From positions 1 through 29,711 of the IMG/VR virus record IMGVR_UViG_3300045988_119598: 29,711 nucleotides of DNA; one strand, 5' to 3'. The stretch is from a virus. This document shows positions 1-29,711 of this stretch, piece by piece. A program made the translations under genes and the position numbers. Each line of letters starts with the position of its first letter. Position 1 is the first letter of the stretch. The notes beneath the pieces are model-generated. The model worked only from the letters and a program-made list of their open reading frames with translations. It ran no database searches and was not told the DNA's origin.

Positions 1-73
1 ATTTCTTCATCTCCCGCATTGAAGAGATTAGGGTAGCTACTGTTAAGCTCTCTAATAATTTGCAAAAAAAAAC
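1..73. repeat. 73-bp terminal direct repeat, identical to 29639..29711 (circular-contig overlap; unit genome 29,638 bp)
   Basis: Bases 1-73 (atttcttcat...tgcaaaaaaaaac) recur exactly at 29639-29711. A minus-strand ORF reads in frame across the join. Confidence 0.95.
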
Positions 74-550
74 CATTACATCAGTAACAATAGTAATTGG
101 AATCTTATCATATAAATCTTCTGCCAATTCCATTACATCATAACCCTCATTATATTTCTTTCCTTTAGGAATTAAAAAGCATAAGAATATATACTTCTGA
201 TTCTTTTCATATTCTTTATAGAAATTCTGAAAATCAATATACTGAGCAGCAGTCATATTTCTGAGATTTAATTGAACTGTATATTTATTACCATCAATCT
301 CATACTCAGTTTCAGGAACTTTAGATTTATACTTATTTACAATAAAATGAATCTTACTAAGTTCTGCAGATAATTGATCTACTGTCATATTTAATAGAGT
401 ATCTCTAGCTTTATCAGGATTATCTGTAAGTAATGCATAGATTTCAATACTTCTATCTAAATCTGTCATTTTTGCATCACTCATAATAAATGAATTTAAA
501 GCTTGAAATTTCTTTAAAGATACTTCTTCCCATTTAGTTGCTACATTCAT
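1..550 (-). CDS. Tail-assembly-chaperone-like protein, 5' part (frame-0 ORF starts at 550, leaves the window start and continues at 29638; 219 aa in total)
   Basis: ATG at 550..548, one nt after the terL TAG. There are 183 uninterrupted codons down to base 2, and codon 184 spans the junction. The segment YEIDGNKYTVQLNLRNMTAAQYIDF resembles gpG-type chaperones by eye only. It is absent from the track because no stop lies inside this end of the window. Confidence 0.55.
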   Translation of the reverse strand, partial: MNVATKWEEVSLKKFQALNSFIMSDAKMTDLDRSIEIYALLTDNPDKARDTLLNMTVDQLSAELSKIHFIVNKYKSKVPETEYEIDGNKYTVQLNLRNMTAAQYIDFQNFYKEYEKNQKYIFLCFLIPKGKKYNEGYDVMELAEDLYDKIPITIVTDVMVFFCKLLESLTVATLISSMREMKK

Positions 551-551
551 A

Positions 552-1799
552 CTATTTAATTTTAATATTATAATGTCCTTTGTTTGTATTTAATGAGTCA
601 TAGGCTAACATTAATGAAATAACTGTATCATCATTAAATCCTGATGGAGCATTATAACTAACATTTCCAGTTTTTGGATTATATGAAGCCTCATATAGTC
701 TTAACTCATTTAAAAGTTTATCATCTTTTAATAATCCTATCTTTTCATTCTCTAAAGCAGCTTGAAGCTTATTAACTATATCTGCCTTACTCTTATTAGT
801 AGTTAAGAATCGTATAATCCTGATTTTCGGATTCTTCCGAACTAACATATCATAGAAGACACTACCAATTGAGTTTTGTTCAACTTGTACAATCTTTATA
901 AATCCTTGATACTCAGTTAGTATATTTGTTAATAAATCAACTTGCTCTGTTGGAGTTTTATCATTAAAATACTTTATAAAGACCATTTGCCCAGATTCAT
1001 TTAAAGCAGTAACACAAGTATAGTCTTTACCACTTCCAGTAGCCCAGTCTATTCCTATATAAAGACTCTGATAATCTGGTTTTTTCTCAATTACGCAATT
1101 AGCTATATTATTAAATAAACAGCCATCATCATCTGCAAATTCCCCTAAATATTCAGTTCTAAATTTATTTTTTGAGGTTGTAAGTCGATACATCTCTAAC
1201 TTCTCTTTATCTAAAAGCATAGATGTATCTTCTAAAGCCCAATCAAATGATTTATAGAACTTGTCATATTTTGGATCTAGCCCTTTAGTAAAGCAATCAT
1301 AAAAAAATCCTTCTCGAAATCTTGGAGTACTGATAATTAATATTGGCGCAGATCATACATCAGCTATAGGAGTTAATATTTCGAATACTTCATCTGATAT
1401 ATATGCAGCTTCATCTATTACTAATAATCCGCTTACTGTAAATCCTCGTAATGAATCTTTTTGTTCTGCGGATTTAAATAATATTTCACTTCCATTAGTA
1501 AACTCTATTTCTAATAAGGACTCATTTTTCTTTTTAATAAGGTCACATTCCCCAAGAGCTTTTATTATTTCCTTAAATATTTTTCTACTATTAGTTAAAG
1601 TTGGCTCCACTATACAACTAATACTACCTGGATAATTTATAGAGAATCTTAATAATTCATTTTCTGCCATAAATGACTTTCCGCATTGTCTTTTAGCTTT
1701 TACTGTAAATATTTTTCCAGACCTATAAGAGTCATTCATTGCAGTATGTACTTTATATTGATAGATAAATGGTCTGTATCCTTTATATATCCTTGTCAT
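552..1799 (-). CDS. terL: Terminase large subunit (415 aa; one in-frame TGA at 1353-1355)
   Basis: Track ORFs 1353..1799 and 552..1220 share a frame and are separated only by the TGA plus 44 open codons. The joined protein has Walker A (RQCGKSF), Walker B (LLVIDEAAY) and nuclease-domain acidic motifs (IGIDWATGSGKD, FNDDTVISL). It ends TAG 552-554. Confidence 0.9.
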
Positions 1800-2235
1800 T
1801 TATAATTGGATCTCCAAATTTAAACTGGCATTCATTATTTTGAATATTAACTTGAATTTCTGGTTGGTTCAATCCAAACATAGAATTTATTGTTTTAATA
1901 ACTTCAGTAGCAGATCTTACATCATTTTTACTAATAGCAATATCCAATAATGTTTCCAATCTTGTTAATTGTATATGTCTTAAATTCTTTATAAGATTAT
2001 CATTTTTATCAGCAATAATCTTATAAGCTTCTCTAATATATTTAGCAGCAGTAGTTTGTCCAACTCCATATTTAGCTTGAAGTTCTTCACTTACTTTATT
2101 TCTGGACCAACCTTTATTAAATAATCTTGCTGCATAAAGATATTTAGTCTTTTGTTCGTCTACTTGATCCTCTTTTACCTCTTCCTTTCTTGGTCTCCCC
2201 GTTTTCTTCGGAAGTTCCTGATCCTTCACTTTCAT
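1783..2235 (-). CDS. Putative terminase small subunit / DNA-binding protein (150 aa)
   Basis: Basic N-terminus (KKTGRPRKEE) and an HTH-like segment (WSRNKVSEELQAKYGVGQTTAAKYIREA). It lies directly upstream of terL and overlaps it by 17 nt. TAA stop. Confidence 0.5.
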   Translation of the reverse strand: MKVKDQELPKKTGRPRKEEVKEDQVDEQKTKYLYAARLFNKGWSRNKVSEELQAKYGVGQTTAAKYIREAYKIIADKNDNLIKNLRHIQLTRLETLLDIAISKNDVRSATEVIKTINSMFGLNQPEIQVNIQNNECQFKFGDPIINDKDI

Positions 2236-2479
2236 TTGTTTTCAGTTTTTCTTGGTATTCAAAATAGATTGGAGCAATTCTCTTTATAAGATTAAGTATG
2301 CAAGTAGCACAAGCTATACTCATTCTATACTCCTGTTCAATTATATACTCATAAATCTCTTTAATCTTTATTACGTCCTGCTTTTGCACATTTCTGCAGT
2401 AATTAGATTTAGTTGCAGTTATAAACCTATCTTCAAATCCTTTTAAATATTTAAACTGATCTTCTGTTAATTGTTTCAT
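2144..2479 (-). CDS. Hypothetical protein (111 aa)
   Basis: Intact ORF with a TAA stop. Its last 92 nt overlap the next ORF out of frame and encode a low-complexity tail. Confidence 0.5.
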   Translation of the reverse strand: MKQLTEDQFKYLKGFEDRFITATKSNYCRNVQKQDVIKIKEIYEYIIEQEYRMSIACATCILNLIKRIAPIYFEYQEKLKTNESEGSGTSEENGETKKGRGKRGSSRRTKD

Positions 2480-2568
2480 AATTAGCGCTTTTTAGTATAA
2501 GTAAATATAGAAATTAACTTTCCATTCTTGTAATGATAAATAACTTCTGTTTCCATAAAATATAATTT

Positions 2569-2898
2569 TTAATTAATAAGTTTGTATATAACATCTATCA
2601 ACTTAGTAGATGCGTCTTTTAATAATATCATAATATCTTTAATAATTGGAGTCATAAATGCTAATAATGCAATATATCCAACCATTAAAATTGAAAATTG
2701 ACTTGTAATAAGAATATATAGTAATCCAATTCACCAAGTCATACACAAACTGCAATCTAAAGGTTTGAGTCTTCAATCTTCTTTATATGGTATACCTTTA
2801 AATAGCATTTTTCAAATACTATGTTTAAAACTATCTAAAGCTCCAGATAAATCAATTATAAAAACTATTATTGCAGTTATTATAAATAATTCTAACAT
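2569..2898 (-). CDS. Small integral membrane protein (109 aa; three in-frame TGA)
   Basis: ATG 2898..2896 overlaps the preceding TAG; TAA at 2569-2571. TGAs are at 2812-2814, 2773-2775 and 2731-2733, the last directly after TGG (CSLCMTW-W-IGLLY). It has hydrophobic TM-like stretches and is invisible in the standard-code track. Confidence 0.65.
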
Positions 2899-3137
2899 AA
2901 TCTCTCTCTTATTTGTTTAATAAATCTTTGAATTGTAGTATGACTAATTCCTAATATTCTTCCAACTTCTCTATAACTGTGATATTCAGCATATAATATG
3001 ATTACTGTCTTATCTGCCTTATTAAGCTCAAGCCATTTTGGATATATACTTAATAATCTATCATCCATATTTGTAAACATACTATAGTCTATTTCATACT
3101 CATTAAGTAAATCATCAATATTAATCTTCCTTTTCAT
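2892..3137 (-). CDS. Sigma-70 region-4-like / HTH transcription regulator (81 aa)
   Basis: LNKADKTVIILYAEYHSYREVGRILGISHTTIQRFIKQIRERL follows the region 4.2 / LuxR-type HTH pattern, by eye. TAG stop. Confidence 0.55.
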   Translation of the reverse strand: MKRKINIDDLLNEYEIDYSMFTNMDDRLLSIYPKWLELNKADKTVIILYAEYHSYREVGRILGISHTTIQRFIKQIRERLC

Positions 3138-3429
3138 TTAATCAATCCTCCAATTCATCATTTTGTTGTTCAAGTGGCTCTTTAACAATCTCATAATATT
3201 TCTTATAAGTATAGTAATATCTACTTGTTTTACTAAACCAATAATTCTTAAATAATCTTGTAATCCAAAATTTCAATTCATTTTTACTATCAAGCTGATT
3301 TAATTTTGGATTTGATGTTTCCAGAAGGTCTAGTATACACATCTGGAAACAATCATCATCCATTCCAAATTTAAGTTTTAACTCTTGGCAGAAGTCATAA
3401 TATTTGGTAATAATCTCATTATTCGTCAT
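3121..3429 (-). CDS. Sigma-70 region-2-like protein (95 aa to the TGA at 3142-3144; 102 aa if TGA is read through to TAA 3121-3123)
   Basis: DDDCFQMCILDLLE ... ELKFWITRLFKNYWFSKTSRYY resembles sigma region 2.1-2.4 / ECF sigma, by eye. This is the only gene whose track stop is a TGA that does not rejoin another fragment. Confidence 0.45.
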
Positions 3430-3853
3430 TTGCTATATAATTACTAAATTCTGTATTTACATCTATCTTAATGGCTTTCTTTAAAGATAATTCTGTTTTT
3501 AATGAATAGCCATAAGTTCCTTCAAAATCTGTTGTAGAACAACCATATTTCATAGAATCCTTTATAAAGGCTTGTTTTATATCTTTAAATATATATACTC
3601 CATCATCAAATATTATTACTAATACAGAATTATTTCTTGATAAGATATCAAATTTATCTCTATTAATAATAGTAGTTGGATATTTATTAGAATTAAATCT
3701 TCTTCTTTTAACTTCTATTATATAATCAATTCCATTCCAATTAAATGTTCCATCATATCTGGAATAATTATCTTTACATCATTCTATGTCTATATTAAAT
3801 TTCTCTTTAAATAGATTCTTTGTAAAGACTAAGCTTCTTATATCTGTTTTCAT
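3419..3853 (-). CDS. PD-(D/E)XK-type nuclease-like protein (144 aa; in-frame TGA at 3779-3781)
   Basis: ATG 3853..3851 overlaps the upstream TAA (TAATG). The ORF is open to TAA 3419-3421 apart from one TGA. It carries a D...IDYIIEVKRR motif (D-x(n)-E-x-K). Not in the track. Confidence 0.5.
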
Positions 3854-4092
3854 TATTTTATATTATTAATTTTAAGGGTTAAATCACAATATTCTTCATA
3901 TAAATCAGATACTTCTTCACTTGCAGGATTAAACCACATTACTGAATCTAATTTATGTTTTAATTCTGCTCTTTCTAATCTTAATTCAAATGTTTTATGT
4001 TGTCTTTCCTGATAAACCTCATTTACTCTGAAACCAGCAATAATTGAAGATGCTATTAAAAGTCCAACTAAAATTTTATTTATTTTTTTCAT
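3853..4092 (-). CDS. Membrane-anchored small protein (79 aa)
   Basis: N-terminal hydrophobic anchor MKKINKILVGLLIASSIIAGF. It is the first minus-strand gene after the divergent control region. Confidence 0.6.
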   Translation of the reverse strand: MKKINKILVGLLIASSIIAGFRVNEVYQERQHKTFELRLERAELKHKLDSVMWFNPASEEVSDLYEEYCDLTLKINNIK

Positions 4093-4136
4093 AATTTTAT
4101 TATTTAAATGTTAATACTTGTTTTATTATTGTAATA

Positions 4137-4168
4137 CAAAGATAATACATTTTTATTCAATTTCCAAA
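4137..4168 (-). promoter_or_regulatory. Bacteroidota-type promoter (TTTG-N20-TATCTTTG) facing the minus-strand operon
   Basis: On the minus strand, TTTG lies at 4168..4165, a 20-nt spacer follows, and TATCTTTG lies at 4144..4137. This matches the published -33 TTTG / -7 TAnnTTTG consensus. Gene start is at 4092. Confidence 0.6.
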
Positions 4169-4211
4169 TTTTTAGACAACTTTTTTTCATATTTTTTTTT
4201 CTTAAAAATTA

Positions 4212-4243
4212 TTTGGAAATCTAAAAATAATGTTGTATATTTG
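4212..4243 (+). promoter_or_regulatory. Bacteroidota-type promoter (TTTG-N20-TATATTTG), plus strand
   Basis: TTTG 4212-4215, 20-nt spacer, TATATTTG 4236-4243. It belongs to the same ~44-bp repeat unit as the other two promoters. Confidence 0.55.
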
Positions 4244-4301
4244 TACTATCAAAATAAGAAATAATAAAAATGAAAATTTATTAAAAATAATTGCTAAATT
4301 A

Positions 4302-4333
4302 TTTGGAAATTTAATTTTTATGTATTATCTTTG
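4302..4333 (+). promoter_or_regulatory. Bacteroidota-type promoter (TTTG-N20-TATCTTTG), plus strand
   Basis: TTTG 4302-4305, 20-nt spacer, TATCTTTG 4326-4333. The segment atgtattatctttgtatta is the exact inverted copy of 4132-4150. Confidence 0.6.
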
Positions 4334-4370
4334 TATTATGAAATTAAAACTAATAATTCTACTACTTCTA

Positions 4371-4397
4371 GGCAGGTGAAAGTCCTGCCACTTTTTG
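4371..4397 (+). terminator. Hairpin plus T-run in the leader of the plus-strand module (attenuator or end of a short RNA)
   Basis: GGCAGG-tgaaagt-CCTGCC (4371-4389) followed by ACTTTTTG. It lies about 35 nt downstream of the predicted start of the promoter at 4302-4333 and 90 nt upstream of the ATG at 4488. Confidence 0.45.
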
Positions 4398-4405
4398 AAT
4401 CTTAC

Positions 4406-4455
4406 TGTCAAGTTTTTTACTCAAATTTAGTAGTAAGAAAATAAAAATATTGACA
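4406..4455 (+). repeat. Dispersed 50-bp intergenic element, copy 1
   Basis: Invariant 18-mer TGTCAAGTTTTTTACTCA (4406-4423), then TAGTA, then AAATAAAAA, then TTGACA (4450-4455). Orientation is given as written; the functional strand is unknown. Confidence 0.9.
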
Positions 4456-4487
4456 AAAAAACTTTAACTATTTAAATTATTAAAATT

Positions 4488-6209
4488 ATGAAAACGTATT
4501 TAAACAATCTAATTAATGAGTTACCAACTAACTGCTTATTTGATAAAGGAAAAGTTGGATGTGGAGGAACTTCAATGGCAATTGAATGTGATAAGCCTTA
4601 TGTTATTTGTGTTCCATTTACAAGCTTAGTTGAAAATAAAATTCAACAATATCCAAATGAAAGACGTAAAGAGAAGATATTTGGAGTTTATGCGGGAGTT
4701 ACTATTAAAGAGATTAAAGATTATGTAGATAGTGTTAAATGTCCTAAAATTATTGTTACATATAATTCACTACCAAAAGTTATTTCTGCTGTTAATACTA
4801 AAGAATATAGTTTATTAGTAGATGAATATCATATACTATTTAATCAGTATAGCTTTAGAAAGGATGCTATTAAACCTGTTTTAGAGAATTATACATTATT
4901 TAAGGATTTTACATTTATGACTGCTACACCTCTTGAAGAAGAATTTGTATTAGATGAATTAAAAGATTTAGAATTAGTAAAACAAGAATGGGATGATGTA
5001 ATTGAAACTAAAGTACAAGCTGTTAAATGTAAGAATGTTGAAGCTTCAACTATTAAATTAATTAATGCTGTTCTTAATAATCAGGTTGAAGGTAATGTTT
5101 ATATATTTGTAAATTCTGTAGACTTTATAAAGAATCTTATTCAGAAAGCTAAACTTACAGAAGATAATACAAGAGTTATATATTCTAAAAACAATAAAAC
5201 TAAATTATCAATTCATAATTCTACAGTATTAGATGAACCTAAGAAAATAAATTTATTAACTTCAACAGTATTTGAAGGTTCTGATATTTATGATGAAAAT
5301 GGAAGAATTGTAGTAGTAAGTGATGCTCAAAAAGCTCAAACTCTTCTTGATATCTCTACTTCTATTCAGCAGATTGCAGGAAGAATTAGAAATAGTAAAT
5401 ATTTAAACTGGATAACACATCTTTACTCAACAACAAGATATGCAGATATTAGTTATGAAGACTTTAAAAAGAAGAATATTCAGAATATTGAAGAAACTAA
5501 GATTGCTGTAGATGCTTATAACTCAATGCCTGAAGTTGCAAGAAAGAAGCTTAAGGAATTTACATCTGATGCTTATATTCAAGTAAATGATAACTTTACT
5601 TTTACTTTTGATCCTAATATGGCCAAAGTGGACATATTTAACTTTAAAGTGACAAGAGGCTTATATTCTATTAGAACTAATCTTAATAAGGAATATATAA
5701 AGAATGGGTTTAAAAAAGTAGTAGAATGTGAAGATAATTCTATTAAGATTGATTTTGAATCTGATAATAAACCATTTAAAGATTTAATTAAAGAAGTAAG
5801 AGCTGAGTGGGAAAATAAGTTTAAATTAAACACTCCTATATTAAATGATGCTATTATTAAATATCCTTGGTTACCTGAAGCTATTAGTAAATTAGGATTT
5901 GAAAAGATGGCAAGTTTAAAATATTGTATTTCAGATATTAAAGATGCCTTATTAAAAAAATCTAATAAAAGTGCAGATAACAAAGCTGCTAAGAAGTTGA
6001 ATCAATCAGTTACTCTTGGAATGTGGTATTCTAATTCTGATATTAAAAAGTTTATTAAAGAAGCCTATGAAATTAGTGATATTACTATTACCCCAAAAGC
6101 AACAGAAATTGATAAATATTATGAAGTTAAAAAATGCCAGAAAAGAATAAATGGTAAACAAACTGAAGGTTATATACTTATTAGTAAAAAATTTGTATTT
6201 AATAAATAA
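4488..6209 (+). CDS. SF2 (DExH) helicase-like protein, 573 aa
   Basis: P-loop-like GKVGCGGTS, motif II LLVDEYH, motif III MTATP and motif VI QQIAGRIRN, by eye. No in-frame TGA (5 Trp, all TGG). TAA stop. Confidence 0.6.
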   Translation: MKTYLNNLINELPTNCLFDKGKVGCGGTSMAIECDKPYVICVPFTSLVENKIQQYPNERRKEKIFGVYAGVTIKEIKDYVDSVKCPKIIVTYNSLPKVISAVNTKEYSLLVDEYHILFNQYSFRKDAIKPVLENYTLFKDFTFMTATPLEEEFVLDELKDLELVKQEWDDVIETKVQAVKCKNVEASTIKLINAVLNNQVEGNVYIFVNSVDFIKNLIQKAKLTEDNTRVIYSKNNKTKLSIHNSTVLDEPKKINLLTSTVFEGSDIYDENGRIVVVSDAQKAQTLLDISTSIQQIAGRIRNSKYLNWITHLYSTTRYADISYEDFKKKNIQNIEETKIAVDAYNSMPEVARKKLKEFTSDAYIQVNDNFTFTFDPNMAKVDIFNFKVTRGLYSIRTNLNKEYIKNGFKKVVECEDNSIKIDFESDNKPFKDLIKEVRAEWENKFKLNTPILNDAIIKYPWLPEAISKLGFEKMASLKYCISDIKDALLKKSNKSADNKAAKKLNQSVTLGMWYSNSDIKKFIKEAYEISDITITPKATEIDKYYEVKKCQKRINGKQTEGYILISKKFVFNK

Positions 6210-6227
6210 AAATATTATATTTGTGAT

Positions 6228-6389
6228 ATGGAAGGTGATATTAAAGAAACAATTAAACAAACTGAAGAGTATATTAAAGAATTAAATAAATGAATACTCG
6301 AATGTAAAGAAGCTACTAAAAGATTTGGTGATATTATAGATAAAGTATTAAAAGATAAAGATTATATGTTTATTTCTAAATTTGATTAA
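6228..6389 (+). CDS. Small hypothetical protein (53 aa; in-frame TGA at 6291-6293)
   Basis: ATG 6228 and TAA 6387-6389. It reads ELNK-W-ILECKE across the TGA and is tightly packed after the helicase-like gene. Confidence 0.4.
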
Positions 6390-6391
6390 TT

Positions 6392-6532
6392 ATGAATGAT
6401 TATTTATTTAAAAAACTTGAAGAACTAGAATATAGAATAGTTCAATTAGAAAACCAGAATAAAGGTTTAGTCTGGGAAGAAGTAGAAGAAATGCCAAAAC
6501 CAGAAATTTCTAATGCAACTTATATTGACTAA
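6392..6532 (+). CDS. Small hypothetical protein (46 aa)
   Basis: ATG lies 2 nt after the previous stop. Coiled-coil-like (LEELEYRIVQLENQ). TAA 6530-6532. Confidence 0.4.
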   Translation: MNDYLFKKLEELEYRIVQLENQNKGLVWEEVEEMPKPEISNATYID

Positions 6533-6533
6533 T

Positions 6534-6677
6534 ATGAAATATCAAACATATAAAGTATGTATAAACGGAGTGTATTATGTATATGTAATACCAGAGAATA
6601 GTAAGTTTTTAGTAGACTTACAAACAGGAGATCTAATACCTAAAGAAGATGATAAGTTATTTGAAATAATGGAATAA
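6534..6677 (+). CDS. Small hypothetical protein (47 aa)
   Basis: ATG lies 1 nt after the previous stop. TAA 6675-6677 is followed by the convergent terminator. Confidence 0.4.
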   Translation: MKYQTYKVCINGVYYVYVIPENSKFLVDLQTGDLIPKEDDKLFEIME

Positions 6678-6681
6678 ATGA

Positions 6682-6709
6682 AAATAGGAGGGTATATGCC
6701 CTCCTATTT
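6682..6709. terminator. Bidirectional hairpin terminator between the convergent plus and minus modules
   Basis: 11-bp perfect stem AAATAGGAGGG / CCCTCCTATTT with loop tatatg. The stop of the minus-strand HNH gene (6704-6706) lies inside it. Confidence 0.7.
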
Positions 6710-7027
6710 CTGTTTAAATCTTTGATAGTTACTAACCGATGAATGAATAGCTTTATGACAAACTGAACATAATGTTATTAAATCCTCCAAATGTTCTTGC
6801 TCATTATATAGATTCTCATACGTCTTATGATGTACCGATAAAGACCTATTTCCGCCTTCCTGAACGCATCAGTTACAAGTTTGGCAGTGATAGTTATCTC
6901 GCAATAATATTTGCTCTCTAATAGCCTTAAAATCCTTTGATCTTATATATCTTTGGTACTTTAAATATTCTTCACTTCTTACTTTCTTTTTCGTCTTATG
7001 AAGCAGTTTACTTGATTTGGAGTCCAT
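6704..7027 (-). CDS. HNH endonuclease (107 aa; in-frame TGA at 6869-6871)
   Basis: RDNYHCQTCN-W-C ... SVHHKTY ... DLITLCSVCHKAIH is a classical HNH / zinc-hook pattern. ATG 7027..7025, TAG 6704-6706. Not in the track. Confidence 0.8.
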
Positions 7028-20903: not shown

Positions 20904-23237
20904 TTAGAAACTTGCATTTGATTCTGTAACTGCAACTTTAGTTTGAACACTGGTAATATCACTCTCAACTACATAACATTTAACAGGTTGATTCAATTCA
21001 TCAGTCTCTTTATTGCCAAGTAAGTTTCGAGTATATTCTACAGGAGCAGTATTTAAAGCAGCAGGAGCAGTAGTTCCTGCATCACTTCCAGAACCTCCAG
21101 ATGAAGGAAGCTGCTCATTCTGGATAGCCTTAACATTAGCAAGACCTGCAATAACTGCTGTAGCTGCTGCAATAGGTGCCAGAATAGGACCTACAAAAGG
21201 TATACCTACCATAGCTTTATATGCACCTTGGGCAGAACTGATAGTATCAATAATAGCTTGAGTAGTAGCTAATGCTTTATACACTTTAAATGATTTCTCC
21301 CTCTGTTTCTCAGATTTTTTATCATCACTAGCTTCTTGTTTAAATACATTAGCTAAAGCTCCACTTAAAGAAGAAGCTACATTCATAGTAGCTTGAATAG
21401 CTTGCTGCTTTTTAGCTTGTCTATCTTTAAATGCTTGCAGATCTGCTTCTCCTCTTGCATTAGCTGCTTCTGATAAAGCTATATCATTAGCATCCTGTTG
21501 CAATTTAATAGCTTGAGATTGATTAGCATATTCTTGTTCTGTTATTAACTTATTGTTATATTGCTCATCTAAGATAGCTTGCTGTTGAGACATCAATTCA
21601 TTTTCTCTTGTAATCCTATCTTTAGTAAGATTATATAACTCTTTATTATAATCTACTGTAGCTTGATATTGCTTTTGAACATCTTTTCCAGATTGATAGA
21701 AATCCGTTGAACCAAATTGTTGAACTCTAGTTTCATAACTTCCAGATTTACCTGCAGATAATGCAGCCTCTTTATTTGCAAATAATTGAGATTCCCTATC
21801 TTGCATTTCTTGTAATGCAGATAATCTGTTTTCTAAGTCTTCCCTATAACTTTCATTATTATTATCTAACCACTCTTTATTATATGCATCATTTATTTGC
21901 TTTAATCTCTTTCTATATTCCTCAACTGTTATAAGCTCTTTATCTTTAGCTGTTTTAAGAGCATCTAATTGATTTTGATATTTGGTATTTAATTCATCTA
22001 ACTCTCTAGCTTCATCATCTAATAGCAGTTTTCTATTCTCTTCATAGAAATCATTGATAACCTTCAGTAAATCAGCGTTACGTTTCTTTGCATCTTCAAT
22101 ATTCTTTAGATAGTTAGCCTTAGCCTCTTCTCTGGCTTTACGCTCTGCAGAGATTTCCATCAGTTTAGTCTTTTCATAAGCTTCAGCAGATTTTTGCATC
22201 AAATCATTTCGCTTCTCAAGATAAGTGTTATAAATACCAGAAGCTTTATCATAAGCTGCTTTTTGATCATCATTTAACTTACTTAAAAAGAAATCAACTT
22301 CATTTGAGCTAGTCTTTAATCTTCATTGTATAGCTTGTGAATACTCCTCCCAAGTGTCATATCCAGATTTCTTAAACTCTTTTCTGAAGTATTTATTACT
22401 CTTAAGTATATCTGTAAATGAATCATTATATGCTTTAGTTACACTTCCAAATTGCTGGAATAATTTAGCATCTAATTCACCTAATGCTTGAGCATAATCC
22501 TTTCAGATTTGTATTTCATTCTTTTTACCTTCAGCTAAATCTCTTTCTCTCTGTCTTTCTAATTCTGCAATTTCTGTATTAGCTTGTGCATAGTTAGTTC
22601 CTCATTGGTCTGTTATATCTTTTAAACCAGAAATACTAATTTCTAAATCATCAATTCCTGATGCTGCTTTAATTGCAAAATCTATTAACATACCAAGAGC
22701 TACAACTAAAGCTCCAATTCCTGTAGATATAATTGCAGACCGTAGCACACCCATTGCTACAGATAATCCTCCAGTTGCAGCCGTAGCACCACCCATTGCT
22801 ACAGATAAGGCTTTAAATGATTTTACTCCATTAAGAATACCTTCACCTAAACCTTTTAATCCTCCAATTCCTTGAACTATAGCAATTGCTGCTTGCAATT
22901 TAACCATAGTTTTTTGAAGATTCTCTGTATCTTTTCCAAATAAAGTGAATGCTGCACTAACAGCTGAAACTCCTCCAGCTAAACCTCCTGCTACTTGATT
23001 GATACTGTCAAACGCCTTAACTGCATTTACAGTTTTACCTTGCATAGATTCTGTAGCAACACCTAACTTATTTTGAACATTAACAAGTTCTTCAAGTTTT
23101 TTAGTATAGTCAGTACTACCAATCTCAAGATCTTCCAGTTCAGCCGTCAAGCCAGCTACTTCTTCTCGTAGCTGCTTGATCGACTTTGAACTAGTTTTAG
23201 TATCTATACTAATTACTTTTTTAATTTCTTCAGCCAT
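20904..23237 (-). CDS. Tape-measure-like / internal virion protein (777 aa; three in-frame TGA)
   Basis: Track ORFs 22602..23237 and 20904..22202 share a frame. The gap is open except for TGAs at 22602-22604, 22503-22505 and 22323-22325. It has Gly/Ala-rich hydrophobic segments plus long coiled coils. TAA stop. Confidence 0.65.
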
Positions 23238-23238
23238 A

Positions 23239-26200
23239 TTAGTTTATAGTTACATTTTTAACAGTATCTTCTGTTAGTGTTAAATTCTCTGTATATTTAA
23301 CTGTTCCTGTAGGTCCATCAGTCACTTCGAATTTAAACTGAACACCTTTTTGAGCATATATTCTATAATTTCCATTATCCCGCATATAAGCCACATTCAA
23401 GAAGTTATCGTTTTCTGTAAGTATCTGATTTACCCCAGTTGGTATAGTGCCACTTGGAGTTTCTAATTTGCCTGTAATAAGAACAGCTTTATTTGGATCT
23501 GGAGTTTGAGTAAACATACATTTAGGACCATCTATGCCTCCTTGTTTATAAAGACTAAAGTAGAAACTTCTTTGGTCATATTTAGTATTCTCATTATAAG
23601 TAACTGTTAATTCTGTTTCTCCAGGTTGCCCAGATTCAGGTGTAATGCTTACAATTTCATTTGGACTATATCATCCTAATTCCCAAGGAATATTAGAAGT
23701 AACTGTAATCTTTTTAGTTCCAGCTTTATAATCTACAACTGGATCTGAATCGTCAAATGATATATACTCACCTAAATTTTGAATTCCAGCTAAATAACTA
23801 TTAATATCTTGAACTTTAATAAATTCACATCTAACAGTAGAATCTGAATTAATATCATAAGCATCTATCTTATTAAGTACCCAGTATGAATCTTCAAAAT
23901 AATAGAATTGTCTAAGTAAATCATATTTAACATCTAAATCATCTAATCTTACAAAGCAGGTGACTTTTTTAGTATTTACATCAAATTGATCATTATAAAA
24001 TTTACTCCAGAATTGGTGATATAAAGTAGATGTCTCAGTATATGTTATATCATCAATATATATCTCTTTAGGTAATCCAAAATCTCAAGAAGATATAACA
24101 TTATAGTCTGATAACATATATCTGGTAAACTGAGGTAATGAAGTCTTCTTTATTGCAATCTTCTTACCAGCTATGTCCCTCTCACTATTAGTATATAAAT
24201 AGCACATCTTCTGATCATTTAATACATTCATTTCTAGAAGATCATCTGTAATCCAGTAGTTTATAGGGTTTCCATCAACATCATTTAATGAAATATTACC
24301 ATTATAAAATACTAAGGATGATGTAATATCCTCTAATGTTTCCTCGTCTCCATCTACAGAAAAGAACATATTTTTAGCAAATATATCATTGCCAGGAATC
24401 TTATATCATTCTGTAGTCTTACTTGGATCTATAAAGTTAACTCCATATAAATCCTGACTTCCAGATTTGATATCAGATGCTAAACCACTAAATAGATTAT
24501 ATGTGATATTATCATTCATAAATGCAGGAACATAAGAACCAGTTGAATTATAGAAATTCCTGTAATACTTACTTCTCCATCTAGCTGAGATGATGTTATC
24601 ATAGATATTATCACTATATAAATCAGTAGTTTCTGAATTAAAGTTATAACCAGTATTTAATCTTTGCTGTCCATATAATTGACTATAATCTTTATTGTAT
24701 TTCTTATAATAATAAGTCTCTGGACCTTCAGAACTCATCTTATAGAATTTCTTATCAAATAATATTGGATTTACATTGAAATCTTTAGAATAGTCTATTC
24801 TCTTACTCCAATCTGAAATTATATTCTTAAAAAAGTTATTTCTAGTATATATTCTAATTGTTTTACTGTCAATATCTTTTGTAAAATACAATCCAAATAG
24901 TTTTGCATAGCTTAGAAGATAATCAGCAGGAGATTGTTCTGTCTTTAATAATAAACTCTTAGTTAATAGAGCATTACTCTGTAATGTGTCTGTAGATATT
25001 ATAAACTCAATAGGAGATGTAAAACTAACTGATATGTTTCCTTTTGGAATAGTTGAAAAGTCTTCACCTCTCTCGTATGTTTCACTTAATAATCCAGTAG
25101 GAGATACTGTATTACCTGTATCCCATATAACATTCAGTTTAATCTTTATATAATCAATCGGAATCTTGAAATCATCAATATTAATATGAAAGAGATTAGT
25201 CTTGGAATTTACATCATAAAATTGTCCGTTCTCAAAATATCCAAAGTGATTCACTCCATCACTTATAGGATTAGAATAATTTCCACTATTAGTAAATCTA
25301 TGAATCTCTGAAGTATATATAACTTGATCATATGTATTAGTTATAGATAACCATACATTAGCATATCCTTTATATGCTGAATAAAAAGGAGGTACTGATG
25401 AACTAAAATACCTTCTAAATCCGAAGTAATATCTATTAGCTATATTTCCAGCTGTCCTACTAAAATTCAAATTAAAGGAGAATGTTGTAGAGAGGCTCCT
25501 TCTAAATCCAGCTTCAGTCAAATCAATAACTCCAGATGAATATTTAATAGTAGAAGATGTTATATCCAACTGTAAAGGACTTAAAACAAACCCTTGATAA
25601 TTAATACCAACATCATAGTTATATGTTCCATCTTTAACTAGAATTCCAGATTCCGCAGTAGATTCAGCATCTCCAACTAAATTAGACAATAGAGGAAGAG
25701 CTATGAATGACTTACTCCAATAAGGATTAGAATTATTAAAGAAACTATCATCAAATATCACATCATATCCAGAATTCTCCTTTCTACAGATCGTTTCTAT
25801 TAACTTACTTAATTTTAAAGCTGGCCTTTGCATATAACTTCTAAGATCTCTTATCTCCCATTCTGTATATGCTCTATTTAAATTAGCTAATCCGTATCCA
25901 TTATATGGAGTATACGTAGTCCCTGATTCAGTTATAGATTTTGGAAATAAACTATCTCCATTAGTATTTATTAGACAAGTCTCATTATCAAAATCTTCAG
26001 GTAATCCATTATATGAAGGTATAAATGTTATATAGTCATATATCTGACTTCCATCTATAGACTTATTTCAATCAAAACAAGTATTTACAAAGTCCTTATT
26101 AATAGAGAAATTCATCTCCTTCTCAGAAGGTAATACATTCCCATCTTCATCTGTTATGAAGTACTGCAATTCCGATAATGTTCTAATAGTGCCATCTTCT

Positions 26201-26598
26201 TTATATTTAAGTCCATAGAAGAAATCTCCTAATCCTCCATATAAAGTAATATTATAAGTAATGACAGCTTGTTTTATAGATATGCTATTTAATTGCATAT
26301 ATCCAGATTCAACTAAATAGCCATTATTATAAATTCCAAAATCAACTCGTTTTGAAGGATCAAAATATACTCCAGAGAAATTACCTTCTTTTATATGGAG
26401 AAATCTATCTAATTTATAAATCTCTCCAAAAATCTTATTATTGTTTTTGTCTCCTGGAATGCTTATAGTCTTACTGAATGAATTTTTTACTATTGTTGGA
26501 TTCTGAAAATCTTCTACAGTATAAGTCATTGGTAACGATATGCCTTCAGAACAATGTACTTCTTTTCCTGCAATAAATAATTTAATATTCTTTCTCAT
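23239..26598 (-). CDS. Large tail/baseplate structural protein (1119 aa; four in-frame TGA)
   Basis: Track ORFs 26068..26598, 24406..25833, 24085..24369 and 23239..23517 are all in one frame. They are joined by TGAs at 26068-26070, 24406-24408, 24085-24087 and 23671-23673, with open codons between. TAA 23239-23241. Confidence 0.7.
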
Positions 26599-26600
26599 AA

Positions 26601-28781
26601 TTATTTACGATAAGTAGCTTGAGAAGCTTCCACATTAATTGTATAATAGAACTTGTTTTTACCTTGATTAGTATAAGTTTTATATTCGCAATTTGTATCA
26701 GTAATCAATACTGGAGTAATAGTATTATCTTTAAGATTATGCAAATATACTTTAGTACTTTCAATTAAATTAAACATCTTAGAAGCTTGAATATCATTTA
26801 AATAACCAGTATAAAGAATCCAGCTTGAAGTTATAGTATTTAAATACTTATTCCTTGCAAATTCTTGAGATGTATTTAATACTTTGCGAGTATATGTTTC
26901 AGATTTAATCTCATCAGTCTTTCTAACATTACCCTCAACAAGTAATGAATCCCATCCTCCTGCTGAATTAGTATAATATAATACATAACCTTTACCTGTG
27001 GTATCTATATCATATCTAATCTGTCTATCACTAATATTTCCGTCTTCTACAAATCCTACTATTAAATAGCTCCCACAAGGCCATAGTTTATTGCTTAAAT
27101 CTTCTGTATATGTATATCCATTAATTCCAGAATTTAAACTAATATCCATAGCAGTTTGTACTCCATCTACATAAAAAAATCTATTAATTACTCCAGTTCC
27201 AGTTGGTAGAATTCAACTTGATACTAAATATTGTCTTGGATCAACTAAACCAGTAATAGGATCACTTAACATAGTACCTTTAGTCAAATCTCTATCTTTA
27301 TAACTCCAATCATTGAAAAAAGTAATTGGTTTTTCATTTCCAGATGATGTTATTAATGTAAATGGTTTTAAATATTCTGGAGATACTATTGTCTTTGAAG
27401 TATTAAATATAATTCCATTAGATAGATAATTTTCAGCAACATTATTTAATAAAAACTCTACTCTATCAGTTTCTGGATATTTATAAGCTTTGCCAGCATA
27501 TACCATATCCCCTGCATAATCTAAATGATATTCAATAAAATCTGAACTGGTTATCTCATTCCAAACATAATCTTTCCAAATTGGAGATATATCAGACTTA
27601 ACTGATTGGATAATATTAATAGATAAATTAATAATACTTGAACTATTCTTTATAACAGATACTCCAATAGTTGCTTTTCTGGAAGATAATCCAGAATTTT
27701 CTGCAATATTTAAGCTAATAGTTGCTACACCTTGAGAATTTACAGATAACTTCTGTCCACTAATCCAACCTACAGGAATGCTAAATACAACATCATCTAA
27801 GTTATTAGAACCTGTTCCCATAATATTTAATGTAGATGCAGTCCAATTTACTTCATAATTAGTATTAGGAATCACCAAAGAAGTTGCAGCTTGTTTAATT
27901 GGAACTGTAGCTTCAAGGTTATAACCCCCAGAAGTTGTTGCAGTAACCATTGCACTAAACTCCAAATTATTAGTAGTTTTATTCTCTGGAACAGTTAATA
28001 CAAAATAGTTATCAACACTATCCTTTTTAATATTACTAGCTTGAGGACAGGTAACATTAAATGAAGTAATAGTTTCTTCTGCTTTAGTTGTACTTAAATG
28101 AAATTCTTCAGTAACAAAAGCAGCTGCTCCATAAGTTCCAGAAGAAGGAGTTACTACCAATTTTAAATCTTCAGGAGTATTACTCTTTTCAATCTTAAAG
28201 TCATAACTATAACTAATAAGTTTATTAGTATCATAATAAGCCCCTAATTGGATAGTTGCAGTTAAATTAGTATTTCATTGAGTATTAGCTCTTACTGTAA
28301 CTTTAAACTTAATAGAGCAAGAATCTCAATCCAGAACTTCCATATTAACTAAAGCTGTAGCATTAACAACTGCTGCATCTCATTTAATAATATCTGATCT
28401 ATTTAATATATACTCTACTGTATATTCTCCACCAGTATTTGGTACTTTAATGGTGCCATTAGCAGGATAATATCCAGGAGCTTTACTATGTAAATTAATT
28501 GGTAAATCTTCCCCTAATAAAGCAGTAGTAATACCTCTAGGATAAAAATGAAATACAGTAGAAGAATCAGTAGTTATTGTTGTAGGAGATAAAAATTGTA
28601 TTGTACATCCTTCTTTACTTGGATCCTGTATAGTTACATTTAAAGGCCCTTCTTCAGTATAATCATCTCCCCAAGTCCAATAATCATATTCTCCAGTAAT
28701 TCCCCATCCAGGATTATTCCATTTAACAGGAAAACTCCTTGATGCATTATATATTCCTAATTTACTTGGTATAAATGCCAT
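26601..28781 (-). CDS. Large tail structural protein (726 aa; four in-frame TGA)
   Basis: Track ORFs 28380..28781, 27213..28160 (which has a TTG pseudo-start) and 26601..27149 share one frame. TGAs lie at 28380-28382, 28326-28328, 28275-28277 and 27213-27215. TAA 26601-26603. Confidence 0.7.
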
Positions 28782-28783
28782 TT

Positions 28784-29263
28784 TTAAAAGTTTTTAAATA
28801 CATTATCAACTTGTGTTTCTAAATCTTTTGTAATTGCATCATCTAATAACATATAAGCATCTAACTCGGTTAAAGATTCTTCAAGCAGATGTTTTCCATC
28901 AATTCCTCTTTTAGAAATTTTTCTTGCTATTAAATATGCTAACTGATCAATAGTTGGAAGCGACCCGTTATATGGACGAGGTAATACAGGCTTAGTTTGT
29001 ATTCACCTTTTTATATCACTGATAGGAGGAAACTTTCCTGCATTTCTGCCTTCCTCAACATACTTCCAATAATCTTGTATTTGTAAACTAACTTCATATA
29101 CTTCATCTTGATCTTCAACTATATAATTAAGTGTATTACCAAGAGTTCCTGTATCATCTGAACCAGTTTGTAGTAATTTCTGCCTATATATAGAAAGTAA
29201 TTGTTCTCCATATTGTTTTAAGACAGCTTCTAAATTGGGAAAATCCAAAACTTGATTTGCCAT
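28784..29263 (-). CDS. Hypothetical virion-module protein (159 aa; in-frame TGA at 29003-29005)
   Basis: Track ORF 29003..29263 continues ...PISDIKR-W-IQTKPVLPRPYNG... to TAA 28784-28786, 2 nt before the next ATG. Confidence 0.65.
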
Positions 29264-29305
29264 TTTTACTAAAATATATCATTCTCATATTGAGTATCTA
29301 AACAC

Positions 29306-29330
29306 AAATAGGGAGATTTACTCCCTATTT
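29306..29330 (-). terminator. Hairpin next to dispersed-element copy 4
   Basis: 10-bp perfect stem AAATAGGGAG / CTCCCTATTT with loop attta, 3 nt from the element. Confidence 0.5.
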
Positions 29331-29333
29331 AAG

Positions 29334-29383
29334 TGTCAAGTTTTTTACTCACTTTTAGTAGTTAAAATAAATAAATCTTGACA
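29334..29383 (+). repeat. Dispersed 50-bp intergenic element, copy 4
   Basis: TGTCAAGTTTTTTACTCA 29334-29351 ... CTTGACA 29377-29383 (perfect 7-bp inverted arms). It starts 2 nt from the TAA at 29386-29388. Confidence 0.9.
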
Positions 29384-29385
29384 TT

Positions 29386-29628
29386 TTAGTGTTTAGCTTT
29401 TCAAAGATCTATTTGTCTTTTTTCTTCTTTCCCTTTATCAAGTAAGTAGCAAATAATATTCAAAAACTCTTGAATCTGCATATCATATACTTGATGTCAA
29501 TTTAACCTTGTTACTTCGCTAACTCTATCTATTCAACAAATCCAGTTCCATTTTTGACTAAATTCAGAGTTTGTCTCGCCTGAACTATCCTCTTCCGTAA
29601 TTGATACTTCTTTACTGGATCTTTCTCC
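29386..29628 (-). CDS. -1-frame extension of the chaperone-like gene (80 codons; three in-frame TGA), probable gpGT-type frameshift product
   Basis: It has no start codon of its own. It is open from the slippery site to TAA 29386-29388 only if the TGAs (29533-29535, 29497-29499, 29401-29403) are sense. It reads ...SQKWNWIC-W-IDRVSEVTRLN-W-HQVYDMQIQEFLNII... Confidence 0.5.
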
Positions 29629-29711
29629 TTTTTCATCAATTTCTTCATCTCCCGCATTGAAGAGATTAGGGTAGCTACTGTTAAGCTCTCTAATAATTTG
29701 CAAAAAAAAAC
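29529..29711 (-). CDS. Chaperone-like protein, 3' part of the frame-0 ORF begun at 550 (29639..29711 duplicates 1..73)
   Basis: It continues ...SMREMKKLMKKEKDPVKKYQLRKRIVQARQTLNLVKNGTGFVE to TAG 29529-29531. Confidence 0.55.
   Translation of the reverse strand, partial: VFFCKLLESLTVATLISSMREMKKLMKKEKDPVKKYQLRKRIVQARQTLNLVKNGTGFVE
29628..29634 (-). other. Candidate -1 ribosomal slippery site G_AAA_AAG
   Basis: Minus-strand ATG AAA AAG GAG. A shift back by one nt at AAA-AAG enters the open -1 frame (GGA GAA AGA ...). Confidence 0.4.
29639..29711. repeat. Second copy of the 73-bp terminal direct repeat
   Basis: Exact match to 1-73. The repeat ends in an A9 homopolymer. Confidence 0.95.

Follow-up and report, generated by a model that had tools for sequence, protein, structure and literature searches.

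How is UGA decoded in a phage that reads this codon as tryptophan, displays Bacteroidota expression signals, and carries nothing recognizable with which to decode it? This paradox had been proposed from the 29,711-nt DNA stretch analyzed here (the window), and the analysis supports it. We conclude with high confidence that the window holds the whole genome of a tailed human-gut phage, uncultured and probably virulent, from a ~30-kb family infecting Bacteroidota, and that in this phage UGA encodes Trp, all 36 genes stop at UAA or UAG, and no decoding gene (tRNA, release factor or aminoacyl-tRNA synthetase) is recognizable.

A complete genome in which UGA encodes tryptophan

End-to-end comparison resolved the window into 29,638 bp of unique genome and an exact 73-bp direct terminal repeat (left copy 1..73, right copy 29639..29711), and thus the entire genome is visible. 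An identical major capsid protein (MCP) occurs in independent assemblies of 29,765 and 29,693 bp. The 36 genes occupy ~95% of the window, with only about 1.3 kb of non-coding DNA. The family is common (hundreds of contigs), and the clade of the window is abundant and diverse, with genomes of 29-31 kb. A second recoded clade, represented by the temperate phage c377, is its sister on both MCP and portal trees. Standard-code sister phages such as c019 share the architecture and GC content of the window; c019 ends 2 of its 39 genes in TGA, so UGA terminates translation at least in its host.

The predicted recoding was borne out. Coverage by stop-free ORFs is 79% under table 11; read-through of TGA raises it to 94%, and read-through of TAG adds nothing. 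In-frame TGAs (35 in total) are spread over 17 of the 36 genes, which end in TAA (29) or TAG (7) and never in TGA. In alignments with about 67 related contigs, the columns that hold TGA in the window contained TGA 287 times and TGG 158 times, followed by TTT/TAT, while window TGG columns contained TGA 206 times; no Gly codon was found opposite a window TGA. Since TGG, but no Gly codon, exchanges with TGA, UGA is assigned to Trp (code 4). For example, the in-frame TGA at 1353-1355 of the large terminase (552..1799, minus strand; Pfam Terminase_6N and Terminase_6C) aligns with W in the closer homologues and with H/Y in more distant ones. The conserved peptidoglycan endolysin (7030..7482, minus strand; Peptidase_M15_3, Pfam E=3.5e-14) has two in-frame TGAs, one of which just precedes the second metal-binding His (ASwIHLG). 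The base 3' of in-frame TGAs matches the background and no downstream structure was found; UGA is therefore a generally reassigned codon and not a site of context-dependent readthrough.

Expression signals and the probable host

A motif scan against shuffled sequences found four matches to the Bacteroidota-type promoter TTTG-N20-TAnnTTTG (0.93 expected), and sigma-70-type promoters showed no enrichment in the window. Three matches fall within the 395-nt divergent region: a leftward promoter (4137..4168, minus strand) before the operon starting at 4092, and a rightward tandem pair (4212..4243 and 4302..4333, plus strand), the second about 90 nt after the first. This trio, which the original prediction had described, is kept in the divergent regions of 16 of 17 relatives, with the leftward promoter in the same relative place, so these are no chance matches; the exception, L103, has one rightward match only. 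The fourth match (6192..6223, plus strand) directly precedes the small ORF 6228-6389. A terminator-like hairpin followed by a T-run (4371..4389, plus strand) follows the rightward promoters and precedes gene 4488, and a terminator hairpin with a 12-bp stem (6681..6710, minus strand) separates the convergent operons. The reported lack of Shine-Dalgarno motifs also held: each of the starts at 4488, 17941, 18886, 20709 and 29263 is preceded by 25 nt with 1-4 G/C, and a core of at least 4 nt precedes 2 of 36 starts, versus a background of 8%.

The Bacteroidota-type promoters, the peptidoglycan endolysin, the relatives present as prophages in Bacteroidota chromosomes, and the Bacteroidota-type integrase of c377 together point to a standard-code Bacteroidota host. 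The standard code is also used by contigs that carry the target of the c377 integrase, a tRNA-Asp, although this link is weak.

Search for a decoder and the distribution of TGA

The prediction that the phage lacks a tRNA and a release-factor-like ORF was confirmed by wider searches. ARAGORN at default settings found no tRNA in the window, and relaxed runs (-ps80, introns, mitochondrial mode, circularized genome) gave no credible UCA anticodon, only junk inside coding sequences; the sole tca call spans a 1,560-nt 'intron'. No tRNA was detected in the window by Rfam search at E<=10, or in more than 100 loci spanning both halves of about 45 recoded relatives. Pfam searches of all 36 ORFs, with PHROGs and NCBIfam searches of the early genes, revealed no release factor, aminoacyl-tRNA synthetase or deaminase, and no translation- or tRNA-modification-related domain. 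Given a complete, ~95% coding genome and recoded relatives that also lack a tRNA, neither an overlooked divergent tRNA nor missing genome sequence can be invoked for the window.

A cryptic non-canonical tRNA or another phage-encoded decoder RNA that escaped these searches is the explanation that the literature favors for tRNA-less recoded phages, and the genome does contain conserved structured elements. An imperfect 50-bp palindrome (TGTCAAG-N36-CTTGACA), able to form a hairpin, occurs in three minus-strand copies: 4406..4455, 20788..20836 (upstream of the head operon) and 29334..29383 (upstream of the tail operon), the last inside a very stable fold (29264-29400; -38 kcal/mol, z=-7). However, the hairpin loops differ in sequence from copy to copy and carry no UCA in the anticodon position, the element is missing from the more heavily recoded c377 clade, and the roughly 1.3 kb of non-coding DNA, an amount that closer analysis shrank further, offers such an RNA little room. 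With nothing credible from ARAGORN or Rfam, we regard a decoder of this kind as highly improbable.

The use of TGA is uneven. It makes up 35% of the Trp codons in the window, with TGG in the majority, and the A-ending share in the other NNR pairs (K, E, Q, L, R) is 68-89%. In the high-expression set of abundant structural genes, none of 13 Trp codons is TGA. The head block (17417..20709, minus strand), comprising a protease (20119-20709), a GIY-YIG endonuclease, a scaffold-like protein, the MCP (17981-18886) and a 174-aa structural protein (17417-17941), contains zero TGAs, and the portal (9410..10492, minus strand; Pfam Phage_portal) has four TGG and no TGA. Clade-wide, the ratio of TGA to TGG is 2 to 229 in the MCP, 2 to 143 in the 174-aa protein, 0 to 36 in the scaffold-like protein and 11 to 184 in the portal. 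The first genes on either side of the promoter region follow the same pattern. The SF2 helicase-like early protein (4488..6209, plus strand; five TGG, no TGA), predicted from its fold (AlphaFold pLDDT 88; Foldseek matches to DbpA, Vasa and UL9 helicases at E~1e-8), has 1 TGA versus 84 TGG across the clade. The first leftward gene (3853..4092, minus strand), encoding 79 aa with an N-terminal hydrophobic helix, is TGA-free in 27 of 27 relatives (0 TGA versus 27).

Other genes do use TGA, and some proteins hold 4-10 each. The four-gene tail block (20904..29263, minus strand; 159, 726, 1119 and 777 aa) contains 12. Two overlapping leftward ORFs (3121-3429 and 2892-3137, within 2892..3429, minus strand) include a sigma-70 region 4-like protein in the second (NCBIfam sigma70-ECF E=2e-5, below the family cut-off; PHROGs sigma factor matches), whose homologues have 27 TGA and 4 TGG. 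All 19 relatives have TGA at Trp codon 22 of ORF 6228-6389. In c377 the recoding is heavier than in the clade of the window, with TGA in nearly every lytic gene. Synonymous divergence is saturated, yet TGA is missing from the highly expressed genes. Its under-use and its avoidance in abundant proteins fit a decoder of limited capacity, and decoding of UGA thus looks real but limited.

Where the decoding capacity may come from

The original prediction left three explanations, namely a decoding host, a helper or co-infecting element, and an unrecognized mechanism, and these were judged to be the right ones. We tentatively favor, at a probability of about 0.4, a decoder supplied by the infected cell and not by the phage. 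The host range of the phages would be limited to Bacteroidales strains already endowed with an opal-suppressing Trp-tRNA activity, which could be a tRNA(UCA) on the chromosome, a resident mobile element or a prophage, or the host's own tRNA-Trp(CCA) reading UGA where competition from RF2 is weak. The phage's own stops would require RF1 only. If the capacity to decode UGA were below that for UGG, selection would remove TGA from the most abundant proteins and the first-expressed genes, and low-copy products, among them tail proteins, terminase, endolysin, regulators and nucleases, would tolerate it. Some observations run against a cell-supplied decoder. The TGA-free genes beside the promoters on both sides are as a phage-induced, post-early switch predicts, and at least the host of c019 terminates at UGA. 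The proteins with 4-10 TGAs demand high per-codon suppression, which is hard to square with a cell that uses UGA stops except where the cell tolerates the suppressor or RF2 is neutralized. In the literature searched, we found no report of a common gut host with a constitutive opal suppressor.

Somewhat unlikely, and less favored, is a non-tRNA switch encoded by the phage. A small or orphan TGA-free early protein would neutralize RF2 or retarget the host tRNA-Trp (e.g., by modification or editing of C34), after which this tRNA would read UGA slowly; translation of host genes with UGA stops would no longer terminate, and the switch could double as host shut-off. Candidates in the window would be 3853-4092, 4488-6209, 6392-6532, 6513-6677 and 2144-2479, and in c377 the 88-aa and 90-aa ORFs adjoining the integrase. 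Slow near-cognate decoding would account for the avoidance of TGA in abundant proteins, the TAA/TAG stops make RF2 dispensable to the phage, and modified host tRNAs or translation machinery have also been raised as a possibility (bioRxiv 10.1101/2021.08.26.457843). The TGA-free genes flanking the promoters agree with a switch, as does the rightward operon of c377, its only TGA-free multi-gene unit. However, the first leftward lytic gene of c377 already has five TGAs and no TGG, ORF 6228-6389 with its invariant TGA lies in the rightward unit of the window, and the helicase family (more than 1000 clusters) occurs in standard-code relatives as well. No ORF has a suitable domain. The two recoded clades, although sisters, also have no TGA-free gene in common that standard-code relatives lack, and this speaks against a conserved switch encoded by the phage. 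The only recoded-specific family in the presence/absence table is a Hjc/RecU-like PD-(D/E)XK resolvase-fold protein, predicted from its fold (3419..3853, minus strand; one in-frame TGA; D34, E47 and K49 invariant; pLDDT 87; Foldseek matches to 2eo0 and 2wcw at E~3e-4), and its genes themselves contain TGAs; no conserved switch is therefore visible.

The simplest account of a whole clade without decoding genes would be an unrecognized lineage of gut Bacteroidota that has tRNA-Trp(UCA) and lacks RF2, and whose table-4 code the phage shares. It would also explain the TGAs in early and regulatory genes and in nearly all c377 genes, and the missing context bias. Nothing was found that points to such a host, and we consider it improbable. 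With a cognate tRNA(UCA), TGA should at least equal TGG; its under-use and its absence from highly expressed genes despite saturated divergence argue against a fully native code 4. The bacteria known to use code 4 are Mollicutes, which have no wall, or endosymbionts of insects, unlike the origin suggested by the conserved endolysin, the Bacteroidota promoters and the human-gut source. The standard-code sisters use TGA stops, the tRNA-Asp contigs are (weakly) at odds with a native code 4, and an equally common code-4 lineage of gut Bacteroidales would probably have been noticed already. We likewise give little credence to a co-infecting helper, a second phage that supplies tRNA-Sup(UCA), such as an opal-recoded crAss-like phage. 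Some gut Bacteroidales phages do carry opal suppressor tRNAs, e.g., Lera/ct1yV3, with Parabacteroides as predicted host (PMC12386605), the Jade clade has a tRNA, TrpRS and RF1 module (bioRxiv 10.1101/2021.08.26.457843), and nothing comparable occurs in the window phage. Against this, it has full structural, packaging, lysis and replication gene sets and no satellite features, an abundant and diverse clade is hard to sustain if each burst needs a specific second phage, and we found no sequence evidence linking it to any helper.

Suppressor tRNAs were detectable in only 35% (bioRxiv 10.1101/2021.08.26.457843) or 15% (PMC11210395) of code-4 phages, leaving 65-85% without one in published surveys, and the window is a new case of this documented gap from an unusually small-genomed and well-sampled clade. 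Nor was a suppressor tRNA found in several opal-recoded zeta crAss-like phages; 3075_90106, ctddo16, ctvkg4 and ctPTU4 are gut phages with obvious TGA reassignment (PMC12386605, Table 1), but they belong to an unrelated lineage (Crassvirales), and their genomes of 173-177 kb carry 18-25 other tRNA genes; for them, in contrast to the window, an incomplete genome or a divergent suppressor may still be the reason. Mycoplasma and Spiroplasma phages read UGA as Trp in the native table 4 of their wall-less hosts, where no suppressor tRNA is needed (PMC11210395); the window phage differs in its peptidoglycan endolysin, its Bacteroidota-type promoters without sigma-70-type enrichment, and its majority use of TGG. 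The small gut phages Garnet, Amethyst and Topaz (22-34 kb), compared on size and recoded structural and lysis genes alone, are similar, but reassign TAG to Gln and not TGA to Trp (bioRxiv 10.1101/2021.08.26.457843). The Jade, Sapphire and Agate clades (Borges et al., bioRxiv 10.1101/2021.08.26.457843) share with the window TGA=Trp, low GC content, a gut habitat, predicted standard-code hosts that include Bacteroidetes, and close standard-code relatives. Their mean genomes, however, are about 150-560 kb, often with many tRNAs, as against zero tRNA in the clade of the window. The window clade avoids TGA in its most abundant late proteins and uses it in early and regulatory genes, a misfit with a simple picture of late-recoded and early-standard genes.

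Genetic code, genome and codon usage

ORFs of at least 100 codons covered 79% of the window under table 11, 94% when TGA was read through and 80% when TAG was read through, and the longest ORFs grew from 816 to 1122 codons once TGA was treated as sense. TAG recoding was ruled out by the lack of a coverage gain, and the gain obtained by reading through TAA is a trivial effect of dropping the main stop codon. With TGA as a sense codon the window holds 36 genes, and 35 in-frame TGAs are spread over 17 of them. These genes end in TAA (29) or TAG (7), a distribution that arises partly by construction, and no gene model needs a TGA stop. In codon-level alignments with relatives, the codons facing the TGAs of the window were TGA (287) and TGG (158), followed by TTT/TAT; a TGG of the window faced TGA 206 times, and no Gly codon (GGN) was found opposite its TGAs. 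Because TGA and TGG interchange and Gly codons are absent, the alignments show that the phage uses table 4 (TGA = Trp) and not table 25, and they rule out TGA = Gly, the code of hosts of the Absconditabacteria/Gracilibacteria type. The practical consequence is that gene calling under table 11 damages 17 of the 36 genes, which are cut short or split; terminase, endolysin and large tail proteins are among them.

To the 3' side of in-frame TGAs, the next base was A in 46%, G in 26%, T in 29% and C in 0% of cases, which is near background, and folding of the 60 nt downstream was no stronger than after TGG. Readthrough in a leaky or SECIS-like context was rejected, since next base and 60-nt folding energy were the same as in controls. 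With no context signal at TGA, the recoding is a general reassignment.

The first 73 bases of the window are identical to the last 73, and this terminal redundancy identifies it as a complete genome of 29,638 bp (GC content about 29%) in a terminally redundant assembly. Two further assemblies, made independently and 29,765 bp (SRR341583, labelled human gut metagenome) and 29,693 bp long, encode an identical MCP. The terminal repeat and the equal length of these assemblies rule out that the window is a fragment with a tRNA located elsewhere. Pfam matches comprise a large terminase, a portal, an XkdF-type prohead protease, a Peptidase_M15_3 endolysin, a tail-tip domain, and two GIY-YIG and two HNH endonucleases. 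The endonucleases make up four genes of homing-endonuclease type in 29.6 kb (two GIY-YIG/NUMOD3 and two HNH; 10861-11526, 19506-20117, 6704-7027 and 12663-13199, all on the - strand), one of them between the protease and scaffold genes, and their presence differs among close relatives. No cultured relative came to light: 50,697 phage records gave neither a megablast nor an MCP protein match, and TerL reached an identity of at most 29%. In metagenomes we found 1280 TerL homologues, the close ones on contigs of 29-34 kb; the IMG/VR loci numbered 67 by capsid protein and 76 by TerL profile. The phage family is common in metagenomes.

Usage of TGA is uneven among the genes. It accounts for 35% of the Trp codons of the window, against an A-ending share of 68-89% in the NNR pairs of Lys, Glu, Gln, Leu and Arg, and for none of the 13 Trp codons in the highly expressed set, i.e., the portal, protease, scaffold, capsid and 174-aa structural genes. 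The avoidance is clade-wide despite saturated synonymous divergence. Across the clade, TGA and TGG were counted 2 and 229 times in the capsid, 2 and 143 times in the 174-aa structural protein (17417-17941), 0 and 36 times in the scaffold-like protein, and 11 and 184 times in the portal; the corresponding counts are 1 and 84 in the helicase gene (4488-6209, + strand) and 0 and 27 in the first leftward gene (3853-4092, - strand). In the sigma-like gene (2892-3137, - strand) they are 27 and 4, and among the low-copy genes (terminase, endolysin, tail, nuclease-like and sigma-like) 30-100% of Trp codons are TGA. Since TGA is under-used overall, shunned in abundant proteins and frequent in low-copy genes, codon usage suggests that UGA is decoded, at an efficiency inferior to that of UGG. 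Such inferior decoding argues against a host in which a cognate tRNA(UCA) is the only Trp tRNA.

Search for a phage-encoded decoder

The original prediction held that the sequence contains neither a tRNA-like cloverleaf nor a release-factor-like ORF, and our searches agree on both counts. ARAGORN with default settings found no tRNA or tmRNA in the window. With relaxed settings (80% threshold, introns and armless mitochondrial models, circularised genome), it returned only low-grade calls in coding regions, none with a believable UCA anticodon, and a permissively filtered Rfam search (E ≤ 10) gave no tRNA either. A cryptic tRNA was rejected, as these searches yielded only junk within coding sequences. 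Pfam analysis of all 36 proteins revealed no release-factor (PCRF, RF-1), synthetase, deaminase or tRNA-modification domain, and PHROGs and NCBIfam gave no decoding candidate among the early genes. The window carries no recognised code-change machinery of its own (suppressor tRNA, RF1 or TrpRS). ARAGORN likewise detected no tRNA in over 100 loci, which between them span the two halves of some 45 recoded relatives; a small number of tRNAs (Leu, Met, Val) were encountered otherwise, in distant loci without clear recoding.

Non-coding DNA amounts to about 1.3 kb of the window, and part of it is probably coding as well. The 494-nt "gap" at 6210-6703 was rejected as an RNA gene, since it contains three small ORFs on the + strand, one of them with a conserved TGA. 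A 119-codon open frame without a good ATG lies on the - strand from 29386-29638 into 1-104 (circular 29742->29386) and overlaps the 3' end of the gene 29529..550 in another reading frame. Its conservation in 17 relatives is of coding type, including a TGA/TGG swap at 29496-29498, and it may extend another gene by programmed frameshifting or be a small gene that starts at a codon other than ATG.

Recoding is limited to part of the phage family. The standard-code sister genome c019 (IMGVR_UViG_3300029905_000019; loci L038 and L125; 30,128 bp, 27% GC) has the architecture of the window and 65% capsid identity. It contains no in-frame TGA, and of its 39 genes just 2 stop at TGA, the sigma-like gene among them. 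The scarcity of TGA stops in c019 agrees with the published idea that depletion of TGA stops precedes reassignment. The temperate sister genome c377 (3300021399_000377; 34% GC) is recoded more heavily than the window: its capsid, portal and nearly all of its lytic genes contain TGA. It, too, has no tRNA. In capsid and portal trees the window and c377 clades group as sisters to the exclusion of c019; in the TerL tree the two recoded clades fall apart, a discord that is probably due to module exchange. On this reading of the trees, a single origin of recoding is plausible.

No gene combines freedom from TGA with presence in the two recoded clades and absence from relatives that use the standard code. 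The only family confined to recoded genomes (9/9 vs 0/~33) is that of the gene at 3419-3853 (- strand), an orphan family with 21 homologues in 5.8 billion proteins and invariant residues D34, E47 and K49. The predicted structure has a Holliday-junction-resolvase fold of the Hjc/RecU-like type, and the c377 homologue has TGA at five of five Trp codons. The fold and the TGAs in the gene itself led us to reject it as the code switch. Because the two recoded clades are sisters in the MCP and portal trees, its association with recoding may reflect a single inheritance, and we regard the product as a putative enzyme of recombination that was passed down within the clade. The 573-aa early protein encoded at 4488-6209 is, by its predicted fold, an SF2 helicase; it was likewise rejected as a switch, being a generic member of a very large family that also occurs in standard-code relatives.

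Host evidence and possible sources of UGA decoding

The promoter motif TTTG-N20-TAnnTTTG, which we take to be the consensus of the Bacteroidota primary sigma factor (TTTG at -33, TAnnTTTG at -7), occurs four times in the window against 0.93 expected. Three matches fall inside the 395-nt divergent region, and the fourth lies directly 5' of a small ORF. Two tandem rightward promoters and a leftward one are kept in 16 of 17 relatives, in which the divergent region is 404-1077 nt long, and the relatives' regions together hold 49 matches in 13.7 kb. Matches to sigma-70-type promoters in the window were below shuffle expectation. A Shine-Dalgarno core precedes only 2 of 36 starts, with a background of 8%. 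The three Bacteroidota-type promoters of the control region and the starts without a Shine-Dalgarno motif, both proposed from the sequence alone, are thus upheld. Native table-4 hosts of the Mollicutes type lack peptidoglycan. The window encodes a peptidoglycan endolysin (Peptidase_M15_3, E=3.5e-14) with homologues in most recoded relatives, and wall-less Mollicutes are therefore excluded as hosts.

MCP relatives, which are not the window phage itself, were found in large chromosomal contigs of Bacteroides sp. UMGS1534 (646 kb, 52% identity), Leeuwenhoekiella (325 kb) and Mucilaginibacter (2.7 Mb). The integrase of the c377 clade is of the Bacteroidota type, with the domains Arm-DNA-bind_5, Phage_int_SAM_5 and Phage_integrase, and a 66%-identical homologue adjoins a tRNA on a contig with GH28, GH106 and BACON genes. 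Close integrase homologues were of no use as prophage markers, as every one lies on a contig of at most 36 kb. The attP core of c377 (L136 and L037; contig coordinates ~4690-4720) is identical to the 3' end of tRNA-Asp(GTC). The same 22-mer occurs in L137, a standard-code relative of 44% GC, and one Logan contig starts exactly at it (L165:1-22). The attachment site was rejected as a route to the host: numerous contigs with the standard code and 50-62% GC contain the tRNA-Asp(GTC) sequence, and the search brought up no recoded prophage still joined to host DNA.

Close relatives of the window phage lie on contigs of at most 34 kb, with one apparent exception, the IMG/VR contig IMGVR_UViG_3300045988_175865 (148,631 bp; L025/L104/L119), which holds a full related-phage copy in its last ~29 kb. 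The contig is very nearly five times as long as the genome, but it gave only a single capsid and a single terminase match; it may represent a concatemer, a chimera or host DNA. Residues 958-1014 of the 1119-aa tail protein (23239-26598, - strand) gave a weak match (E=0.006, below the Pfam cut-off) to Viral BACON, a domain described for tail proteins of crAss-like phages.

Recoded phages of standard-code hosts and a shortage of suppressor tRNAs are established. Suppressor tRNAs were reported in 35% of code-4 genomes (bioRxiv 10.1101/2021.08.26.457843) and in 11 of 73 code-4 phages (PMC11210395), a matching tRNA was found in only 13% of TAG-recoded genomes (PMC9610469), and four opal-recoded zeta crAss-like phages lack Sup-TCA (PMC12386605). 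The gap has been blamed mainly on divergent tRNAs or incomplete genomes (bioRxiv 10.1101/2021.08.26.457843, PMC11210395, PMC9610469, PMC12386605). The window phage belongs to this known, unsolved class and is not a new kind of system. The published account of how phages impose another code on a standard-code cell, by means of a phage suppressor tRNA, covers only 15-35% of code-4 phages. What is new here is a small, complete and abundant clade that defeats the excuse of missed tRNAs or incomplete genomes, because its genomes are complete, 29-31 kb long and ~95% coding, and dozens of relatives have no tRNA. New as well is a pattern of codon usage that the "late genes are recoded" model leaves unexplained.

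We favour decoding supplied by the cell, with a probability of roughly 40%. A resident opal-suppressing Trp-tRNA activity in the infected cell would read UGA or, alternatively, the host tRNA-Trp would do so under weak competition from RF2. This fits best because no conserved phage factor was found, the lytic genes expressed first in c377 already contain TGA, and codon usage points to a decoder of limited capacity. Neutralisation of RF2 or retargeting of tRNA-Trp by a phage protein is a rather doubtful alternative; the promoter-adjacent genes are strictly TGA-free and the phage's own stops are independent of RF2, as such a switch would have it, but no candidate is recognisable or common to the clades. 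The remaining explanations are less likely. A Bacteroidota host that natively uses code 4 is improbable in view of the peptidoglycan hydrolase, the low share of TGA relative to other A-ending codons and its absence from highly expressed genes. We consider an obligatory helper phage equally improbable, and a cryptic decoder RNA in the phage genome hardly credible.

A further proposal, which we put forward tentatively, is that UGA would be read as Trp in ordinary standard-code gut Bacteroidales without a dedicated tRNA, either through a small, unrecognised phage protein that disables RF2 or reprogrammes the host tRNA-Trp, or in common strains that naturally read UGA as Trp with high efficiency. 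If true, this would amount to a protein-only code switch that fits into 29.6 kb, or to natural, efficient UGA = Trp decoding in common Bacteroidales, and either route would be a mechanism of code change yet to be demonstrated in bacteria. The compact, abundant and completely sampled clade would then offer a minimal system for finding the mechanism. The early region is small, with about 12 genes, roughly six of them free of TGA, and this makes the decoding question directly testable.

Palindromic elements and predicted hairpins

An imperfect palindrome of ~50 bp (TGTCAAG-N36-CTTGACA) is present in three conserved copies, located in the divergent region (4406-4455), before the head operon and before the tail operon (20788-20836 and 29334-29383), all read on the - strand. 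The copies supply 6 of the 11 TTGACA hexamers of the window. Variants in relatives keep the complementarity of the arms (TGTAAC...GTTACA), and the element is absent from the c377 and c019 genomes. The TTGACA elements were rejected as sigma-70 promoters, since just one copy of the three is accompanied by a plausible -10 and the window as a whole shows no enrichment of sigma-70-type matches. The palindrome could act as a promoter of late genes or as a site for a regulator, possibly the phage sigma-like protein, or else as an RNA-processing hairpin.

At 29264-29400 (- strand) we predicted a very stable three-way fold of -38.1 kcal/mol (z=-7.1 vs shuffles), in which an 8-bp closing stem surrounds a GC-rich hairpin of 10 bp together with the palindromic element. 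Another strong hairpin (z=-5.5) follows the 777-aa tail gene at 20836-20883. Ahead of the gene at 4488, within 4338-4400 (+ strand), a terminator-like hairpin (4371-4389) with a T-run lies ~35 nt past the second rightward promoter, and could give rise to a short transcript of ~60 nt or serve in attenuation or antitermination of the early operon.
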